A program made the position numbers and the translations under genes. Under the pieces are notes generated by a model. The model was not told the DNA's origin, did not search any database, and saw nothing but the letters and a program-made list of their open reading frames with translations. DNA of 47,086 nt from a phage. Shown here piece by piece: positions 1,979 to 40,330 of the stretch. Position 1 is the stretch's first letter. Each line of letters begins with the position of its first letter. The stretch lies in the NCBI GenBank assembly GCA_020364185.1, contig GCA_020364185.1_4846.1; one strand, given 5' to 3'.

Positions 1979-3847
1979 ATGAAAGTACAGCTTAGAACAT
2001 ACCAACAAGAAGCTGTTGATTCTGTTATATGTCATATTCGTTCAAGCGTTTCATCGTGCATGATCATCTTGCCTACAGGGTCTGGGAAAAGCGTTGTTGT
2101 TGCATCAATCGCCGATTGGGTATTTAAAAATACTGGCAAGCGCGTTCTGTGCGTTGCCCCAACAAGCGAGTTAGTTGTACAAAACAGGCAGCGTTTTCTT
2201 TCTCTTACCGGCGAGCCAGCCAGCATGTTCAGTGCAAAGGCTGGCCCCAAAAACCTGCGTCACCCGGTAGTGTTTGGTTCACCAGTTACAATCAAGAACT
2301 CAATAGAGATGTTTGGTGATAAGTATGGTGCTGTCATTATTGATGAATGTGATGGAATAACGCCAACCATTAAATTCATTATTAATGAGATGAAGCGTCG
2401 CAATCCAAAACTGCGTGTTATTGGAATGACCGCTACGCCTTACCGCCTTGGAACTGGATACATCTACAAAGAGCATTACCTCGACGGTCCTACAGATGAA
2501 GAAACAGCCATAGACCCATATTACGACAAAGTCGTTTATGAGCTTGAAGCTAAATTTCTCATCGAAAACGGATACCTTACTCCGCCAGTAACAGAGCCTG
2601 TTTTTGACGAGTATGATACGTCTTGTCTTGAAAAGGATAAGTTGGGTCGGTACACGATAGCTTCAGTTGAAAAGGCGATGGTTGGAAAAGGAAGAAAAAC
2701 ATCACGTATTGTTGAAGATATTATCCGTCGCTCTGTTAATCGGCGAGGAACGATGATTTTTGCCAGCACCAAGAAACACGCTATGGAGATAATGGAGTCA
2801 CTTCCTCCCGGTTCTTATAGTTATGTTTTTGGTGATATGCCGACAACGGAACGCAATAAGGCAATATCAGACTTCAAGGCGCAAAAAGTTAAATACATCG
2901 TTAACCAAAATATCCTTACTGTAGGGGTTGATGTTCCTCATTGTGATCACATAGCAGTAATGAGAGCCACAGAATCACCAAGGCTCTATCAGCAAATAAT
3001 TGGCAGGGGGACGCGTCTTTATGAAGGAAAGGAAGATTTTCTTGTCAGCGATTACGCAGGCAACATTCAGCGCCACTTTTCTGCGACTGGGGACTTATTC
3101 ACTCCAGAAATAAAAGCAACAAGGAAAAAACCATCCGTGCCAATGGATGTCAAATGCCCTCTTTGTGGCTTTATTAATGAATTTGGCGTGCGCCCAAATC
3201 CTGAAAATCTTGAAGTTGACAATGAGGGGTACTGGCTTGATCTGGCTGGTGACAGGGTTATGATTGACATTTTTGATAAATCAGGTGAAAAAGTTGGAAG
3301 AAAGCCAATGCCAGCTCATTTTGGCAGGAGGTGTAAAAACTATGTTATGCAAGGACCATTAAGAGAAATGCACAGATGCACTTATAAATGGTCGGTAAAA
3401 GAATGTCCTGATTGTGGATTTGAAAATGATATAGCGGCAAGAAACTGCACATCATGCGGATCTGAAATCATTGACCCAAACCAAAAGCTAAAAGAAGAAG
3501 CTGACAGGCTTGATTCTTCTCCTTATGCAACCAAGCAATCAAGTGTAACCATGATGAATATCATGAAGCATTACGTTTCAAGCGGAGAAGACTTGGTGCA
3601 CGTGAAATTTGCTATTGAGCACAAGCCATTTTTTGTTAGCAAGTTCTACAATCCAAACTCTGAGAAGGAATGGATGAGGAAGGAGTGGGAAGAGTTTTGC
3701 AGTAAGTGCTTTGATGAATCTGACATGTCAATTGATGATGCAATAGCAAAAAGAGATGAGGCTGTCGCGCCATCAGTGATTATGTTCAGAAGAGATAAGG
3801 GTAGTAAATATTTCAACGTTAAAGGCATGTATTGGGGGGTATTATGA
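1979..3847 (+). CDS. SF2 DEAD/DEAH-box DNA helicase with C-terminal Zn-ribbon motifs
   Basis: 622-aa ORF; Walker A LPTGSGKS, DEAD-box-like IIDECD, SAT-like MTATP; two CxxC pairs (CPLCG, CPDCG / CTSCG) in C-terminal region. Confidence 0.8.
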   Translation: MKVQLRTYQQEAVDSVICHIRSSVSSCMIILPTGSGKSVVVASIADWVFKNTGKRVLCVAPTSELVVQNRQRFLSLTGEPASMFSAKAGPKNLRHPVVFGSPVTIKNSIEMFGDKYGAVIIDECDGITPTIKFIINEMKRRNPKLRVIGMTATPYRLGTGYIYKEHYLDGPTDEETAIDPYYDKVVYELEAKFLIENGYLTPPVTEPVFDEYDTSCLEKDKLGRYTIASVEKAMVGKGRKTSRIVEDIIRRSVNRRGTMIFASTKKHAMEIMESLPPGSYSYVFGDMPTTERNKAISDFKAQKVKYIVNQNILTVGVDVPHCDHIAVMRATESPRLYQQIIGRGTRLYEGKEDFLVSDYAGNIQRHFSATGDLFTPEIKATRKKPSVPMDVKCPLCGFINEFGVRPNPENLEVDNEGYWLDLAGDRVMIDIFDKSGEKVGRKPMPAHFGRRCKNYVMQGPLREMHRCTYKWSVKECPDCGFENDIAARNCTSCGSEIIDPNQKLKEEADRLDSSPYATKQSSVTMMNIMKHYVSSGEDLVHVKFAIEHKPFFVSKFYNPNSEKEWMRKEWEEFCSKCFDESDMSIDDAIAKRDEAVAPSVIMFRRDKGSKYFNVKGMYWGVL

Positions 3848-14554: not shown

Positions 14555-14749
14555 ATGGATGTTGTTATTTTGTTGTTTTTCGCTGGGTTGGTGATATTTG
14601 CTTATCTTCTCCAATCATTTGTGGCATTGCAAAGAAAGCACACAAATACGACCGCAATCTGTGTGCTGAATATTCTTGTAGGGTGGAGCTTTATTGGGTG
14701 GGTTGCAGCACTTGTTTGGTCATTAGTTAACAGTGGCGACAAGAAATGA
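14555..14749 (+). CDS. small membrane protein resembling superinfection-immunity (Imm-type) proteins
   Basis: 64 aa, two hydrophobic helices; motif NILVGWSFIGWVAALVWSL resembles conserved GW-x-IGW core recalled for small Imm-like membrane proteins. Confidence 0.45.
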   Translation: MDVVILLFFAGLVIFAYLLQSFVALQRKHTNTTAICVLNILVGWSFIGWVAALVWSLVNSGDKK

Positions 14750-16620: not shown

Positions 16621-16697
16621 GGACGCGTAGCTTAATTGGTTAAAGCAACCGACTCATAATCGGCTGATTGAAGGTTCAAATCCGTCCGTGTCCACCA
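16621..16697 (+). tRNA. tRNA-Met (anticodon CAU; could be initiator/elongator Met or lysidine-modified Ile2)
   Basis: manual fold: 7-bp acceptor stem (one G-U), U8, D-arm GCTT/AAGC with GG in loop, anticodon loop CUCAUAA, T-loop TTCAAAT, discriminator A and encoded CCA; two stem mismatches. Confidence 0.6.
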
Positions 16698-28570: not shown

Positions 28571-28806
28571 TAGTATTCACCCTCAAAATCACTATCTTTA
28601 TAAGTAAACCCCCCTCTTGTATTCCATGACTTCACCGCCGAATCTGCGTGAAGCCACTCATCAGTACCGCACCCGCACTGCGAACAAGCAACGTAATAGC
28701 CATGAATATTTTTGTCATTGTAAGCATCGTTGCAGCCACAGAATGGGCACTCCAGCAATCCTTCATCATTCATCATCGGCATATGTGGCGCTGTCATTTT
28801 AACCAT
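28570..28806 (-). CDS. Lar-family restriction alleviation-like protein
   Basis: 78 aa; LECPFCGC...HGYYVACSQCGCGTDEW...AVKSWNTRGG resembles the Zn-ribbon pattern recalled for Lar-type restriction alleviation proteins. Confidence 0.55.
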   Translation of the reverse strand: MVKMTAPHMPMMNDEGLLECPFCGCNDAYNDKNIHGYYVACSQCGCGTDEWLHADSAVKSWNTRGGFTYKDSDFEGEY

Positions 28807-30454: not shown

Positions 30455-30482
30455 CAAGCCCCATTACGGGGCTTTTTTATTG
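30455..30482. terminator. bidirectional intrinsic terminator
   Basis: AAGCCCC-attac-GGGGCTT followed by TTTTTAT. Confidence 0.65.
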
Positions 30483-30955
30483 CGTAATGAGTTGTACTGC
30501 GCCTCACACATCAATCCCGCCTCCCTTGCCCTGTCAGCGTAATCTGCCAGCTGTCGATTTCTTTCGACAGATTTGCTGAGCACGTCTCCAAGCAAAACCC
30601 CGGTTTCTGCGGCTGGATTGCCAATGGACTCAGCGGCGGAATATCCGACGAGCTGCTTGCGGATGTTTGCGAGTTGTTGCTGCAACCTGCCAGACTTAGC
30701 AGCAGCGTTAACAGCATCATTACGCGCAGCATCAACCCTTTGCTGGGCGTCGGCCTGAATCTTCTGTAGTTCCGCATTGCGTCGTTGCTCCTCTTTCTCG
30801 TTGGCAGCCTTTTGTTCGGCTACAGCCGTTGCGTACCCGTCGTTATATCTCCGCTCGCCATAGCTGGATACCTTGTTGACAACCCACAACGCGCAGATAG
30901 CGACAATTATAATAATTGCCAGCGGTCGCCAGTATTTAATGAGAGTTGCCATCAT
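30464..30955 (-). CDS. i-spanin (Rz-like)
   Basis: 163 aa; N-terminal TM helix (WRPLAIIIIVAICALWVV) then charged coiled-coil periplasmic domain; contains embedded Rz1-like ORF. Confidence 0.6.
   Translation of the reverse strand: MMATLIKYWRPLAIIIIVAICALWVVNKVSSYGERRYNDGYATAVAEQKAANEKEEQRRNAELQKIQADAQQRVDAARNDAVNAAAKSGRLQQQLANIRKQLVGYSAAESIGNPAAETGVLLGDVLSKSVERNRQLADYADRAREAGLMCEAQYNSLRNKKAP
30511..30732 (-). CDS. o-spanin (Rz1-like lipoprotein) embedded in alternate frame of Rz-like gene
   Basis: signal MLRVMMLLTLLLSLAGC with lipobox L-A-G-C, Pro-rich mature part; entirely within 30464-30955 in another frame. Confidence 0.5.
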   Translation of the reverse strand: MLRVMMLLTLLLSLAGCSNNSQTSASSSSDIPPLSPLAIQPQKPGFCLETCSANLSKEIDSWQITLTGQGRRD

Positions 30956-31175
30956 CGCGCAGCCTCCGGTTTTCTTTGCGCATCACGTTCATCTTGCCGA
31001 GGATGCCAACCAGCATGATGGAGTAGCTCACGCCTTTAACCACGATTGGCGGTAGCGCCGCTTTCAGGTCGTCAGGCATCATTACCCACACATGCATCAT
31101 TGCATCTGGCCATAGCTGCAACAGCGAGCAGAATGAAATCCACGCACCGAGCAGCCAGTTGCTTAGCTTTTTCAT
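30936..31175 (-). CDS. putative class II holin
   Basis: 79 aa with two hydrophobic helices and charged C-terminus; ATGA overlap with endolysin stop. Confidence 0.45.
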   Translation of the reverse strand: MKKLSNWLLGAWISFCSLLQLWPDAMMHVWVMMPDDLKAALPPIVVKGVSYSIMLVGILGKMNVMRKENRRLRDDGNSH

Positions 31176-31636
31176 GCCACAGCCCCGCCAGCCTCTTTGT
31201 ATACCTGAATCAGCTTATCCAGCTTCTGCTCGTGCTGACCATAACCAGCACCCGGCAATGAAGCCCAGCGGGAGCGGCATTTATGGATGGCATCAGCAAT
31301 GCGCCCAGCCTCAATATCTGCGGTTGCTTTGCATTCACGGATTAGCTGCATTGCAATAGCGTCCTGCGATGCGGGGGAGAAGTCAGGCAGGCGCAGTTGC
31401 TTTTTGTACGCATCGTAAAACTTAGCCAGCACCTGATAGCGTCCGGCGGCAGTGGATTTGATACCCAGCTTAGGCAGGCTGACCAGCTTTCGCGGGTGGT
31501 CGGAATAATCAGTAAACAGCGAGCCACCAACAATCACATCGTAGCCATGATTATTGGTCTTCTGCCTGCCATTGTCCGTACCCTCACTGTACGCCAGCAT
31601 ATCCAGAAACGCTTTCATGTTTTTGCTAATAGCCAT
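31172..31636 (-). CDS. endolysin, lambda R-like lytic transglycosylase
   Basis: from ATG 31636 (AAGAGG RBS): KAFLDMLAYSEGTDNGRQKTNNHGYDVIVGGSLFTDYSDHPRKLV...AGRYQ...WASLPGAGYGQHE closely matches lambda R as recalled. Confidence 0.8.
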   Translation of the reverse strand: MAISKNMKAFLDMLAYSEGTDNGRQKTNNHGYDVIVGGSLFTDYSDHPRKLVSLPKLGIKSTAAGRYQVLAKFYDAYKKQLRLPDFSPASQDAIAMQLIRECKATADIEAGRIADAIHKCRSRWASLPGAGYGQHEQKLDKLIQVYKEAGGAVA

Positions 31637-31904
31637 ACCAGTAAACCTCTTTTTCAGCTTTGCGTTTTGCTTTATCGCCAGTCTTCTCTCCCCACACGAT
31701 GAAATGCGCAACAGCACATGAGAAGCAGCGAAGGTTATGTTTCTTCAGAAGTGTTGATTTACGGAACACGTCAATGCCAATGTCGGTGGCAAGACTTGTC
31801 AGTGCATCAAACTGATTCTGTGTTGTCTCGGTAGTGATGTAAGGCGATATATCTACGGCATCGGTGACGCCAAGCGTCTCAGAGCCGCGTTGCGATAGTT
31901 TCAT
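31626..31904 (-). CDS. hypothetical protein upstream of endolysin
   Basis: 92-aa ORF, not convincingly hydrophobic; first gene after promoter region. Confidence 0.4.
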   Translation of the reverse strand: MKLSQRGSETLGVTDAVDISPYITTETTQNQFDALTSLATDIGIDVFRKSTLLKKHNLRCFSCAVAHFIVWGEKTGDKAKRKAEKEVYWYGY

Positions 31905-36599: not shown

Positions 36600-36607
36600 C
36601 GATGGAT

Positions 36608-37483
36608 ATGAATCAAGTTATTAGCTTTTCAGGCGGCAGGACTTCAGCGTTTATGACACTTGAGGTGCTAAAGATACACCCAGAAGCAGAGGTTATCTTT
36701 ATGGACACTGGAGCAGAGCACCCAAAAACGTATGAGTTTATTCGCAACTTCGCAAAGCACTTCAATGTCGCCGTGACATGTCTTCGTGTGGTGCCAAATC
36801 ATGAGATGCGCAAAGCAAGTACGTATGAGCAGTTAACCGTCGATGAGATTGGCCCGGACCTTGAGCCATGGCGTAGAATGTTGCGCAAGTACGGTCACCC
36901 ATATGTTGGTGGGGCGTTCTGCACTGACCGCATGAAAACAGTCCCATTCACAAAATACTGCAATGAAAAATACGGGAAGAGCAATTATGAGAGATGGCTT
37001 GGTATCAGGGTTGATGAACAAAATCGGTTAAAGAATAGAGGTGACGGTTTTCATTACCTTGCAGACATCAGTGACTTTGAAAAGCAGGATATCCTTGACT
37101 GGTGGTCAATGCAAGAGTTCGACCTTGGCATTAAGGAGCATCTTGGCAATTGCGTTTTCTGCATCAAGAAGAGTCTGCAGAAGGTTGCGCTTGCTGCAAA
37201 GGATGAGCCTGAACTTGCCGCTGAATTTTGGCAGATGATTCAGGCTGAAGATAAAAAATCAGACAAGATAATGTATCGTTCAAACAGAAGCCTTGGCGAC
37301 GTTATAGCTTTATTTAACGATGCAAGCAGGGATGAACTGGCATCACGGATGACGTCAATGCGCCAGTACGATACTGGCTCATGCAGTGAGAGCTGCGAGG
37401 CGTTTGGTGGGACCGAGAATTCAATGAAGCATTACTTAAATGACGCTGGTGATGATTATGAAAATCGTGGCGATGACTCATGA
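36608..37483 (+). CDS. PAPS reductase-like PP-loop ATPase family protein
   Basis: N-terminal ISFSGGRTSA PP-loop; start at ATG 36608 (8 nt after AAGGAG) preferred over 36602. Confidence 0.7.
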   Translation: MNQVISFSGGRTSAFMTLEVLKIHPEAEVIFMDTGAEHPKTYEFIRNFAKHFNVAVTCLRVVPNHEMRKASTYEQLTVDEIGPDLEPWRRMLRKYGHPYVGGAFCTDRMKTVPFTKYCNEKYGKSNYERWLGIRVDEQNRLKNRGDGFHYLADISDFEKQDILDWWSMQEFDLGIKEHLGNCVFCIKKSLQKVALAAKDEPELAAEFWQMIQAEDKKSDKIMYRSNRSLGDVIALFNDASRDELASRMTSMRQYDTGSCSESCEAFGGTENSMKHYLNDAGDDYENRGDDS

Positions 37484-37698: not shown

Positions 37699-37703
37699 AA
37701 ACA

Positions 37704-37730
37704 AGCCCTCATTCGAGGGCTTTATTTTTA
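37704..37730. terminator. bidirectional intrinsic terminator
   Basis: AGCCCTC-attc-GAGGGCT followed by TTTATTTTTAT. Confidence 0.65.
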
Positions 37731-39152
37731 TCTCCTGCGCCTGATTAGCATTCCGCTGCCGCGCTGGACGATGTGGTCATTAAGTGCGTAGCGAACCGCA
37801 TCCCAGTAATGGTTAAATGCATCAACAATATCTGTCAGCACATTGCCAGTCAGCTTATCCACCTTATAGCTGTACATTGCGGCCTCATTCTGCATTTCCT
37901 TGCATCTGTCATGAATAATGATACTGTCGCAGCCACGAAGCCACGTCACACCATCCTCAACGCTTCCCGGCCATTTTGTGCATGGATGAATATCGAATCC
38001 AGAGCGCTTGATGTGGCTGATGGTTTCAGGTCGAGCGCAGTCTGCATACCATCGCGCGCGCTTAGCCATCGGGAATGATTGCTCCATCGCGGCTGGTGTA
38101 TCGGTAATTTCAAGCCCCACCTTGCCGTACTCGCGATTAATATAAATGTTGCGTCGCCCGCCCGGTAATTCTTCGATGTAAACCTCAACCATTGCGGTAG
38201 GATCGGTGGAAAAACCAAAATCCATCCCGAAGTATGGGCCGTGCCATTCAGGTTTGACCTCAAAGTTATCAATGCGCCACTTGCCTCCGAAGACCTGCTC
38301 GTCGCTGCGTTTGTTAAATTTTCCTTCCCATATCCACATGTAGCGATCGAAATCGACGCGCTTCATTTGCTCCATAGCAGACGGCAGAGGTGTATCCCAG
38401 AACCACGGATTGTCTGAATAGTTACATTCGATAATCAGGATTTCATCATTTTCGAATATGCCATCAACCATCTGTGAGTGATATGGGGCAATCCAGTTTT
38501 TCCATGTTGGGTCTGTATCTTTGTTGGGGTTGAATGAGCACCACAATTCGGAATTGGCAGCACGGATGGTAGGAACGAGAATATCCCAGCTTGTCTGGCT
38601 GACGTTCTCTGCTTCCTCTACCCAGCCGACGGTAATGCCAGCAAAACCCTTAACGGTTGTCTGATTGCGATACAGCCCCTTAAAGCGAAATTTAGCCTTA
38701 GTCTTCTTGTGTGTTATCTCGTTGTTGATAACGCGAAACTCTGCCGATTCGCCCTTGCGCGCTATTTCGTCGCACAATTCCTGGTAGCTTGAGTCTTCAA
38801 TGGATTGCTGAATCTCACGAAAGCAGGCAAAGCGGTCAGGTCGAAACCTTGCACGTTCAGTAAGTATAGTGATAATAGTTCTCGTCTTCCCTGACCCACG
38901 GCCGCCGTAGACAAACTTAAAACGCTTCGGGTAAAGCAGTCGCTCCAGCTTTGCGGGAATCAGGTGGTCGGCATCGGTGGTTGCGTTGGTTACGTCATCA
39001 ACGCCAGTGGCTGTCATCCTTAACCGCTTGATGACGTTTTTCTGCATGTCACAGATACCAAAAATGGCAGACTCTGCAACATCCGTCATCGCATCATCAA
39101 TCTGAGCTTCCAGTTTTTCAATTGCCAGAGCGGATAGGCGTTTACGAGCCAT
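37728..39152 (-). CDS. terminase large subunit
   Basis: Walker A FVYGGRGSGKT near N-terminus, about 475 aa, acidic nuclease-type C-terminal half; ATG 39152 chosen (track start 39170 is TTG). Confidence 0.8.
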   Translation of the reverse strand: MARKRLSALAIEKLEAQIDDAMTDVAESAIFGICDMQKNVIKRLRMTATGVDDVTNATTDADHLIPAKLERLLYPKRFKFVYGGRGSGKTRTIITILTERARFRPDRFACFREIQQSIEDSSYQELCDEIARKGESAEFRVINNEITHKKTKAKFRFKGLYRNQTTVKGFAGITVGWVEEAENVSQTSWDILVPTIRAANSELWCSFNPNKDTDPTWKNWIAPYHSQMVDGIFENDEILIIECNYSDNPWFWDTPLPSAMEQMKRVDFDRYMWIWEGKFNKRSDEQVFGGKWRIDNFEVKPEWHGPYFGMDFGFSTDPTAMVEVYIEELPGGRRNIYINREYGKVGLEITDTPAAMEQSFPMAKRARWYADCARPETISHIKRSGFDIHPCTKWPGSVEDGVTWLRGCDSIIIHDRCKEMQNEAAMYSYKVDKLTGNVLTDIVDAFNHYWDAVRYALNDHIVQRGSGMLIRRRR

Positions 39153-39297
39153 GACGCGAAGTCCCAACAATAGTAATTATTGTCGCCGTCAGCATGAACA
39201 TGCATCCCCATATCGCGAAAGCGGTAGCTCCTGAAATACCACCAGCGATAAACATCAACATTGCAAGCGCCATGCTTGAGAGTGCCAGCTTAAGCAT
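39142..39297 (-). CDS. small hydrophobic ORF (51 aa), possible membrane peptide
   Basis: hand-translated MLKLALSSMALAMLMFIAGGISGATAFAIWGCMFMLTATIITIVGTSRHGS between terminase genes. Confidence 0.25.
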   Translation of the reverse strand: MLKLALSSMALAMLMFIAGGISGATAFAIWGCMFMLTATIITIVGTSRHGS

Positions 39298-39300
39298 TAT

Positions 39301-39426
39301 TCACCTCGGCTTAAATTGAGAATAAATAGCCATTGACAGAACAAACAGCCAACAAATGACATGTGAGATGATGTTGTCCGCGGCAAAGAATCCAGCCATT
39401 GCCATCATGCCGCCAATAGTAAACAT
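39301..39426 (-). CDS. small hydrophobic ORF (41 aa), possible membrane peptide
   Basis: MFTIGGMMAMAGFFAADNIISHVICWLFVLSMAIYSQFKPR from internal ATG of track ORF 39301-39561. Confidence 0.25.
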   Translation of the reverse strand: MFTIGGMMAMAGFFAADNIISHVICWLFVLSMAIYSQFKPR

Positions 39427-39430
39427 AAAG

Positions 39431-39850
39431 TCACGCATTCTGCTGCTCCAGCAATTTCTCCAGTCGCTCAAGTCGCGCGGCGAGTTCGGTAACTTCGGCG
39501 ATATCCAGTCCTGTCCTGATAACTTCAGCAAATGTCTTGCCAATGTCCACAGGTATAACACCAGCGGCTATACCACGAATGACGGCATCAATCTTCTGCA
39601 CTGGAGTTCCGTCATCAGGGAAGTCAACCTCAAAAACTGGGGCCACCGGTTTAGGTAGCGGACTGAATCGAACGATTAGTTCCTTCATCATCGCCGTGTC
39701 ACGTTCAATCATCGCCATCTCGACGATGGTGTCATAGAGCTTTTCCTCACTAAATCCCTTTCTCTCAAGAGCCTCAACGAGCAACTTGCGCTTATCTTTC
39801 CCGCGTTTGTTTTGCGGTTGATTTTCTTTACTGAATAGCTTTTTAGCCAT
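39431..39850 (-). CDS. terminase small subunit (putative)
   Basis: 139-aa ORF upstream of large terminase; basic N-terminus, C-terminal coiled coil; positional inference. Confidence 0.4.
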   Translation of the reverse strand: MAKKLFSKENQPQNKRGKDKRKLLVEALERKGFSEEKLYDTIVEMAMIERDTAMMKELIVRFSPLPKPVAPVFEVDFPDDGTPVQKIDAVIRGIAAGVIPVDIGKTFAEVIRTGLDIAEVTELAARLERLEKLLEQQNA

Positions 39851-40330
39851 AGATAAAACCTATCAATATTCCGCTATTTTTCCGTTATTCGATATTGTAA
39901 CAGATTCTACACCATGGCGTTAATGGCAAAAAAGAACCCGCACAAGGCGGGTAAAAGGTTGAGTGATGATATGAGTGAAAGCAATGGTGGTTATGTGCTT
40001 ATTGTACACCATCATTATCACGCTTGCCAGCATAGCACCATGCGTTTTCTGTTCGCGTCTGCACATGGACGATTTCAAGCGCATCAGGGAATGTCTTTGC
40101 TACCTTCGCGATAAAATCGTCCAATTCGTGCTGCTTTGCGAGCTGCCAGACTTTCTGTTTAGTGGTTTGCATTATCAAAAGCCCTCGTTGAGCACATGTA
40201 CTTAATGTCGTGCACGCCGTTATCCGGAACAACTTCAATGCGATTACTGAGCTGCACCATCATGTAATGACAGGTCATCATGCCGTCCCAGTAACGTTTC
40301 CACATGAATTCCATTGCCTCATTGATATCG

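Follow-up and report, generated by a model that had tools for sequence, protein, structure and literature searches.

Between terL, the gene for the large terminase subunit, and the gene preceding it, the genome of a phage of enterobacteria carries two very short open reading frames (ORFs), designated hereafter as ORF1 and ORF2, which very probably are real but dispensable genes for membrane micro-proteins, located in a slot whose contents are swapped between related phages. The DNA analysed, referred to as the window, comprises 47 086 nucleotides (nt; NCBI GenBank assembly GCA_020364185.1, contig GCA_020364185.1_4846.1) and represents a Skatevirus-like siphophage of enterobacteria with Escherichia phage ECO111 5-P as its best match (approximately 90% identity across 64% of a 25-kb query). 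Four genes follow one another on the minus strand with no non-coding gaps, in the order of a gene for a protein of 139 amino acids (aa), ORF1, ORF2 and terL (Table 1). Judged from sequence and position, the two ORFs would encode small accessory membrane proteins at a mosaic joint, a known kind of arrangement, and by itself the finding overturns nothing known.

Evidence for coding and purifying selection

A preliminary description of the window, made from its sequence alone, had noted two tiny, almost entirely hydrophobic ORFs of 41 and 51 aa between the putative small and large terminase genes, and had seen two options, that they are genuine small proteins or that a GC-skewed spacer produced them as by-products. 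Both ORFs are present on the minus strand, ORF2 exactly at the position and length given there and ORF1 most likely as a protein of 45 rather than 41 aa (see below). Their grand average of hydropathy (GRAVY) of 1.14, compared to 0.56 ± 0.23 in shuffled sequences, was reached by 0.45% of the shuffles (p about 0.005), and 11-residue hydropathy means were mostly above 1 along both proteins; the hydrophobicity of ORF1 and ORF2 is above what composition gives. The position does not force it either, because in other relatives the ORF found in this slot is acidic and hydrophilic. The idea of a skewed spacer did not hold, the GC content of the slot (0.45 compared to 0.462 for the window, 39th percentile) being ordinary. 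As for length, 11% of dinucleotide shuffles had no more than one internal stop codon over 297 nt when that frame was considered, and 33% when any sense frame was counted.

Selection was analysed in five sequences: the window, ECO111 5-P and three metagenomic contigs, the last four being close relatives with both ORFs. Variable sites at codon positions one, two and three numbered 7, 3 and 22 in ORF1 and 10, 10 and 22 in ORF2. The ratio of nonsynonymous to synonymous polymorphism (pN/pS) ranged from 0.04 to 0.27 for ORF1 and from 0.23 to 0.37 for ORF2, and for ORF2 compared with its variants in Klebsiella phages it was mostly 0.2–0.5. In public assemblies, tens of contigs carry these genes in intact form; ORF1 (45 aa) is represented by at least 13 different sequences and ORF2 (50–51 aa) by about 20. 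ORF1 and ORF2 are regarded as real genes because of this comparative evidence, namely low pN/pS, the excess of variation at third positions and the many intact variants, which together identify them as two protein-coding genes under purifying selection and decide between the two options of the preliminary description in favour of real small proteins.

Both frames were kept in relatives, with exceptions in ORF1. Indels in ORF1 were found in two of the four close relatives aligned with the window, both of them metagenome assemblies (numbers with L refer to loci in our collection of relatives): in L040, 2 nt are deleted near the 5' end, and in L045 a T-run has gained 1 nt. ORF2 was free of indels in all four relatives. 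Frameshifts in close relatives had been named beforehand as an observation that would speak against the ORFs, and on this point the outcome was marginal; ORF1 may occasionally be lost. Two further odd ORF1 variants, P0019 from a chimeric contig and P0018 from a contig with fragmented gene calls, were discounted as evidence of decay.

The start of ORF1 and predicted structures

The start of ORF1 is most likely the ATG at 39438, located 12 nt upstream of the ATG at 39426 that gives the 41-aa reading. It is preferred because a GGAG motif (39449..39446), inside the last codons of the 139-aa gene, lies 7 nt upstream of it, with a Shine-Dalgarno (SD) duplex free energy (dG) of −5.6 compared to −2.4 kcal/mol for the ATG at 39426; because this is the start position in every slot of relatives that contains small ORFs; because gene callers report the 45-aa form in public assemblies; and because the Met at 39426 is replaced by Ala or Val in relatives. 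The annotated start of ORF1 belongs at the ATG that overlaps the stop codon of the upstream gene.

With the corrected start, ORF1 shares 8 nt with the 139-aa gene (ATGCGTGA), and ORF2 overlaps terL by 11 nt (ATGGCTCGTAA), so that the terL start codon sits within the end of ORF2. The earlier statement that each ORF overlaps its neighbours was correct for these two junctions but not for that between ORF1 and ORF2, which are separated by 3 nt in the same frame (TGA-ATA-ATG). The SD motif of ORF2, GAGGTG, occupies the last codons and the stop codon of ORF1 and is conserved in L005, L040, L044 and L045; its dG of −10.3 compares with −5.6 for ORF1 and −3.9 for terL, where the motif (GGGA) is weak. 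A read-through fusion of ORF1 and ORF2, considered in view of the shared frame across TGA-ATA-ATG, was rejected, since in L040 the two frames are put out of register by a 1-nt deletion that leaves ORF2 intact.

The ORF1 protein reads MRDF...KPR, with the C-terminus SQFKPR, and its conserved part is the C-terminal segment CWL..L..A..S.F..R. AlphaFold2 (AF2) predicted one continuous helix over residues 2–41 with a predicted local distance difference test score (pLDDT) of 86. For ORF2 (MLKL...RHGS, C-terminus GTSRHGS, GRAVY 1.34), helices were predicted at residues 2–19 and 23–49 with GGIS between them (pLDDT 76), giving a helical hairpin. Positive residues are found at both ends of this protein (K3 at the N-terminus, R48/H49 at the C-terminus), and by the positive-inside rule the model would likely correspond to a membrane hairpin with both termini inside. 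The two proteins had no detectable similarity to each other.

An exchangeable slot between the 139-aa gene and terL

Forty-three related loci were collected, in each of which both flanking genes were located. The slot between these genes contained nothing; one of three families of hydrophobic ORFs, namely A (the family of ORF1), B (the family of ORF2) or C; a tandem of A and B or of C and B; a 48-aa acidic ORF; or an HNH endonuclease gene. The slot is empty in L025, the cultured Salmonella phage Seszw_1, in which the flanking genes overlap by 11 nt, and a second group without a slot ORF has a spacer of 99 nt and a terL product that matches that of the window over its first 97 residues only. 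Family A occurs alone in L036 and L038, in a form 44–47% identical, and family B alone in many Klebsiella phages. Family C comprises hydrophobic ORFs of 51–52 aa and was found in BS5 and in the BASEL phages Bas77–80. The A and B tandem is present in the window, ECO111 5-P, L040, L044 and L045, and that of C and B in L017, L026, L033 and Flyfo siphovirus Tbat1_6. Across the 43 loci, pairwise ratios of nonsynonymous to synonymous substitution rates (dN/dS) were mostly 0.05–0.5 for families B and C.

The acidic, hydrophilic ORFs (family D; 47–48 aa, MDDEANNYKSKCDEVLL...NGS) have no family match and occupy the slot of L001, L007, L011, L024, L030, L031, L034, L041 and L043. In L010, L012, L013, L016, L020 and L023 the slot holds a homing-endonuclease-like gene of the Pfam types HNH_3/AP2, 170–176 aa in size and located at approximately 2920–3530 in each of these loci, whose stop codon overlaps the terL start (ATGGCTAG). 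This endonuclease may drive the mosaicism around terL. A comparable situation is that of the free-standing seg and mob homing endonucleases and hyperplastic regions of phage T4; the same position here holds HNH_3/AP2 genes and the flanking alleles are reshuffled, the difference being that ORF1 and ORF2 are not nucleases.

A search of 50 697 GenBank phage records gave 1, 25, 14 and 15 matches for families A, B, C and D, respectively, each at a single place next to terL. These families are restricted to this group of phages and, within it, to this position. The one record with family A carries no annotation, and of the 15 records with family D, 13 are Salmonella phages. All 25 records with family B, which adjoin terL without exception, label it as hypothetical protein or not at all, several of them with the terL feature as the only one beneath the match. 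Sequences of the ORF2 type formed 13 cluster representatives, all of 50–51 aa.

The flanking genes exist as distinct alleles as well, at approximately 99, 54 and 44% amino acid identity for the 139-aa gene and approximately 98, 85, 80 and 60% for terL, and these are freely combined, both among themselves and with the cassettes; because of this free reassortment the slot is considered a recombination joint. In profile-profile comparison, family A was related to neither B nor C. For B compared to C this comparison gave a probability of 56%, part of this signal being the C-terminus forced by the shared overlap with terL, and the two may be distantly related. By these comparisons at least two unrelated hydrophobic families (A as opposed to B/C) use the slot. 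A single precise slot at the start codon of an essential gene, with five interchangeable contents and an empty state, amounts to a clean natural experiment, and cultured phages (BASEL Bas77–80, Seszw and the Klebsiella phages) span most of the states, so that both the function of the membrane micro-proteins and the effect of a leader ORF on terminase expression are directly testable by means of the slot states.

Anatomy of the junction and proposed translational coupling

The following statements refer to the loci whose junctions were read. The empty junction reads ...CTGGAGCAGCAGAATGGCTCGTAA (also given as CAGAATGGCTCGTAA). Here the terL ATG follows a GGAG at 7 nt and is part of the final codons of the upstream gene. 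When the slot is filled, the first small ORF starts at the ATG behind the GGAG that serve terL in the empty-slot phage, and codons 2–3 of the small ORF supply the stop codon of the upstream gene, as ATGCGTGA, ATGGATAA, ATGGATGA or ATGTTTAA, which explains the recurring N-termini MRD, MDK, MDD and MFK. At the other end, families B, C and D terminate in ...ATGGCTCGTAA and thereby recreate the terL start within their last codons, hence their common ...GS C-terminus. The end of family A is different: it has a stop codon of its own, which overlaps the terL ATG by 1 nt when this family is alone. Each small ORF provides a G-rich, SD-like motif 9–13 nt before the terL ATG (dG −3.9 to −9.0). These junctions suggest that an inserted gene takes over the ribosome-binding site of terL and hands ribosomes on to it, in which case the translation of terL would depend on coupling to the slot ORF.

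Promoters and terminators were called as consensus matches, and the regional total of promoter-like sites was not above shuffle expectation. The four genes look like one operon, because a promoter-like site lies upstream and a terminator-like hairpin follows terL; consensus-only scans placed no promoter-like or terminator-like site within the stretch of ORF1 and ORF2 (39142..39438). The 139-aa gene, ORF1, ORF2 and terL would therefore form a single operon read by translational coupling.

Family and literature searches

For ORF1 and ORF2, Pfam gave no match at E <0.01, and for these and the alternative small ORFs searches of Pfam, PHROGs, NCBIfam and PADLOC returned nothing significant; the anti-phage defence models of PADLOC did not match ORF1 or ORF2 at E up to 1. 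A deep profile search with the ORF2 family retrieved approximately five true relatives among 1.84 billion representatives, in addition to low-complexity noise. Rfam identified no RNA element in the slot, a tRNA being its only finding in the whole window. Literature searches for Skatevirus and for membrane proteins encoded between terminase genes, made in a library that covers some but not all journals, yielded no description of ORF1 and ORF2, and the insertion anatomy of the slot is apparently undescribed. The annotation of the left end of phage T1 names no terminase genes there and was uninformative as a comparison.

Two peculiarities of public resources concern these ORFs. The exact ORF1 and ORF2 sequences share one cluster at 90% identity (69 members) despite their dissimilarity, for which a gene call bridging the in-frame TGA-ATA-ATG is one possible cause, and one source labels an ORF1 variant as small-conductance mechanosensitive channel, a label that looks spurious.

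The gene upstream of the slot

The large terminase is recognized by its Pfam domains (Table 1). The name of small terminase for the 139-aa gene rests on its position and is not established: the protein had no family match in Pfam, NCBIfam or the Protein Data Bank, it falls in PHROG 9747 ('unknown function') and all naming sources call it hypothetical. The exact protein (P0028) is present on 50 contigs including E. coli isolate assemblies, of which the longest is 85.6 kb compared to a genome of approximately 47 kb; this contig could be a concatemer assembly or reflect some carrier state, and a gene annotated as ParB-like partition protein occurs in the relative Bas77. A simple scan found tiny hydrophobic ORFs with SD-like motifs at 28632–28739 and 39920–40033 (both minus strand, 35 and 37 aa), and annotations of relatives include a 35-aa 'membrane protein' situated upstream of the 139-aa gene at a distance of a few hundred nt.

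Function of ORF1 and ORF2 and alternative explanations

The explanation that we consider the best overall, and on balance probable, is that ORF1 and ORF2 are accessory membrane micro-proteins in a swap slot that act on a membrane target. The peptides would be inserted in the inner membrane of the host, and their target there would be a host or phage component of the membrane in the infected cell. They might keep the DNA of competing phages from entering, or they might neutralise or modulate a host function that resides in the membrane. They are considered accessory factors rather than parts of the packaging motor because the slot is empty or holds a soluble protein in relatives, including cultured ones. 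A role specifically in exclusion or host takeover is tentative and should be regarded as doubtful.

A number of observations weigh against the favoured explanation. The length of the ORFs by itself is within chance, and ORF1 carries the indels described for L040 and L045. Homology to characterised proteins was found neither in Pfam, PHROGs, NCBIfam and PADLOC nor in the deep hidden Markov model search. A hairpin topology is unsupported for ORF1, for which AF2 draws a single 40-residue helix. With regard to exclusion, such proteins of virulent phages are usually made early and a terminase operon is expected to be late, and the phage already has a gene of the Imm family elsewhere (Table 1).

Small hydrophobic proteins that regulate larger membrane complexes are known from bacteria, for example, AcrZ, MgrB and SgrT. 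By analogy to these proteins of 30–50 aa, which are likewise hydrophobic and helical, ORF1 and ORF2 could plausibly act by binding a membrane partner; they are not related to them in sequence. The Imm family of phage T4 (PF14373) also consists of small hydrophobic proteins of virulent phages, as is the case here. ORF1 and ORF2 were rejected as Imm_superinfect proteins, since they do not match PF14373 and another gene of the window does. Type I toxin peptides such as Hok and TisB combine a single transmembrane peptide with an antisense RNA or RNA element, an arrangement not seen in this case because Rfam finds only a tRNA in the window and the ORFs are coupled in an operon.

The closest functional precedent is gp15 of phage HK97, a small YebO-like inner-membrane superinfection exclusion protein whose gene is inserted in a late morphogenetic operon (PMC3594210). 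The gp15 gene is described as an addition that was spread among phage genomes by horizontal transfer, and its product blocks DNA entry by other phages (PMC3594210). ORF1 and ORF2 differ from it in having no internal promoter or terminator site, a typical composition and no Pfam match; relatives of the window phage are called lytic in the titles of papers. Like morons in the sense of Juhala and Hendrix (PMC3594210), they are extra genes that some relatives have and others lack at that position, but the consensus-only scans gave them no promoter and terminator of their own, and their composition (GC 0.45 compared to 0.462) does not differ from the genome. On these grounds they were not classified as classical morons.

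Modulation of lysis timing, in which the peptides, made together with the late packaging genes, would join or antagonise the holin in the inner membrane, is an unlikely alternative that has several features in its favour. The proteins are small, helical and hydrophobic, and at least one transmembrane helix, as in holins, is predicted for them by hydropathy and AF2; the predicted two-helix hairpin of ORF2 with its short positive termini resembles class II holins and pinholins such as S68 of phage 21. Lysis genes of phage T7 moreover lie around and between its terminase genes, the holin gene 17.5 being followed by the spanin genes 18.5 and 18.7. The products of the latter two (Rz/Rz1-like spanins) are membrane proteins encoded between gene 18 for the small and gene 19 for the large terminase subunit of a virulent coliphage, like the situation here; with this precedent, and with the junction being a slot for accessory genes, the view that membrane peptides are not expected inside a terminase operon was overstated. 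One of the T7 spanins extends into the periplasm with a domain of its own, and the other is a lipoprotein of the outer membrane. The two spanins have 143 and 83 aa compared to 45 and 51 aa for ORF1 and ORF2, which have no soluble domain; neither the transmembrane helix with long periplasmic coiled coil of an i-spanin nor the lipobox of an o-spanin is found in them, the sole Cys (C29 in ORF1, C32 in ORF2) lying in the second hydrophobic segment outside any lipobox context. As holins they would be shorter than known examples and without the typical charged, hydrophilic C-terminal tail, their tails having 6–7 residues with 1–2 positive charges, and they are not linked to an endolysin gene. At a distance of 7.5 kb the window has a complete lysis cassette that includes a 79-aa holin, and ORF1 and ORF2 were rejected as holin or spanin of the phage on account of it. 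In relatives the slot is empty or holds the acidic soluble ORF without a visible change of the lysis cassette.

Another proposal, which we rate as equally unlikely, is that a dedicated landing site exists where the 139-aa gene meets terL. Unrelated micro-proteins (45–52 aa), captured there at least twice, would take over the ribosome-binding site of terL and so make synthesis of the large terminase dependent on translation of a membrane peptide. In a separate alternative the ORFs would be translational couplers only, that is, frames kept open so that ribosomes reach terL, the peptides themselves being functionless. The tight overlaps of starts and stops, the G-rich SD-like motif before the terL ATG, the weak terL SD in the window (−3.9) and the takeover of the original terL ribosome-binding site by the first slot ORF all fit this idea. 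It is improbable, however, given pN/pS values well below 1, which indicate selection on amino acids and not just on an open frame, a hydrophobicity that exceeds composition, the strong SD of its own that ORF2 has and the existence of empty-slot phages that manage without a coupler ORF.

Slightly less probable again is a link to packaging, with peptides that tether or regulate the terminase or the procapsid at the inner membrane or set the subunit ratio. It would account for families found at this junction only and never elsewhere in phage genomes, for co-translation with terL and for the fact that hydrophobic families filled the slot at least twice independently (A being unrelated to B/C, B and C being perhaps distant relatives). 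Against it are viable relatives with the same classes of flanking alleles in which the slot is empty or holds the acidic ORF or the HNH endonuclease, and the cassette type reassorts independently of the flanking alleles, contrary to co-adaptation with the terminase. Chance ORFs in a non-coding spacer, conceivable from the shuffles (at most one internal stop over 297 nt in 11–33%) and the lack of family matches, are effectively refuted by the third-position variation and low pN/pS, with the correctly spaced SD motifs, ordinary GC and dozens of intact variants pointing the same way. In the unlikely landing-site reading, and if the repeated choice of hydrophobic contents is no coincidence, the captured peptides may represent a new class of phage micro-proteins, which could connect packaging of DNA with the membrane, or act against competitors and membrane-located defences by excluding or disarming them.

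Other features of the window

Coordinates of the slot, its flanking genes and further features are compiled in Table 1. The hairpin that closes the terL operon also serves a convergent gene, similar to phosphoadenosine phosphosulfate (PAPS) reductase, which encodes 293 aa (36602–37483, plus strand) with an N-terminal PAPS_reduct domain (E 1.5e-10).

Table 1. Positions of the slot ORFs, flanking genes, expression signals and lysis and immunity genes in the window
Feature	Position	Strand	Remarks
139-aa gene upstream of the slot	39850..39431	−	Named small terminase by position only
ORF1 (cassette family A)	39438..39301	−	45 aa + stop, MRDFMFTIGGMMAMAGFFAADNIISHVICWLFVLSMAIYSQFKPR
ORF2 (cassette family B)	39297..39142	−	51 aa + stop, MLKLALSSMALAMLMFIAGGISGATAFAIWGCMFMLTATIITIVGTSRHGS
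terL, large terminase gene	39152..37728	−	474 aa; Pfam Terminase_3 (1.6e-34), Terminase_3C (1.7e-11)
ORF2 Shine-Dalgarno motif GAGGTG	39307..39302	−	Strong; dG −10.3 kcal/mol for the duplex with the 16S 3' end
Sigma-70-like promoter candidate ahead of the four-gene operon	39923..39894	−	TTAACG, 18 nt, TACAAT, with upstream TG
Terminator-like hairpin just upstream of the promoter candidate	39952..39936		Consensus scan
Bidirectional intrinsic-terminator-like hairpin directly after the terL stop	37703..37722	both	8-bp stem, T-runs on each strand
Lysis cassette	31904..30467		154-aa endolysin, 79-aa holin (DUF7940; 30942..31178), Rz-like spanin; 7.5 kb away
Rz-like spanin	30955..30467		In the lysis cassette
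Imm_superinfect gene	14555..14749	+	PF14373 (E 1.4e-15); 64-aa hydrophobic protein of T4 Imm type

The lysis cassette is headed by an ORF of 92 aa (31629–31904, minus strand) for which the only match is the C-terminal half of Phage_lysozyme (profile positions 55–114 of 125). This ORF overlaps the start of the separate 154-aa endolysin gene and may be a remnant or a split lysozyme. The tRNA of the window, the only match of Rfam or ARAGORN, is a single tRNA-Met (CAT) at 16621–16697 on the plus strand.

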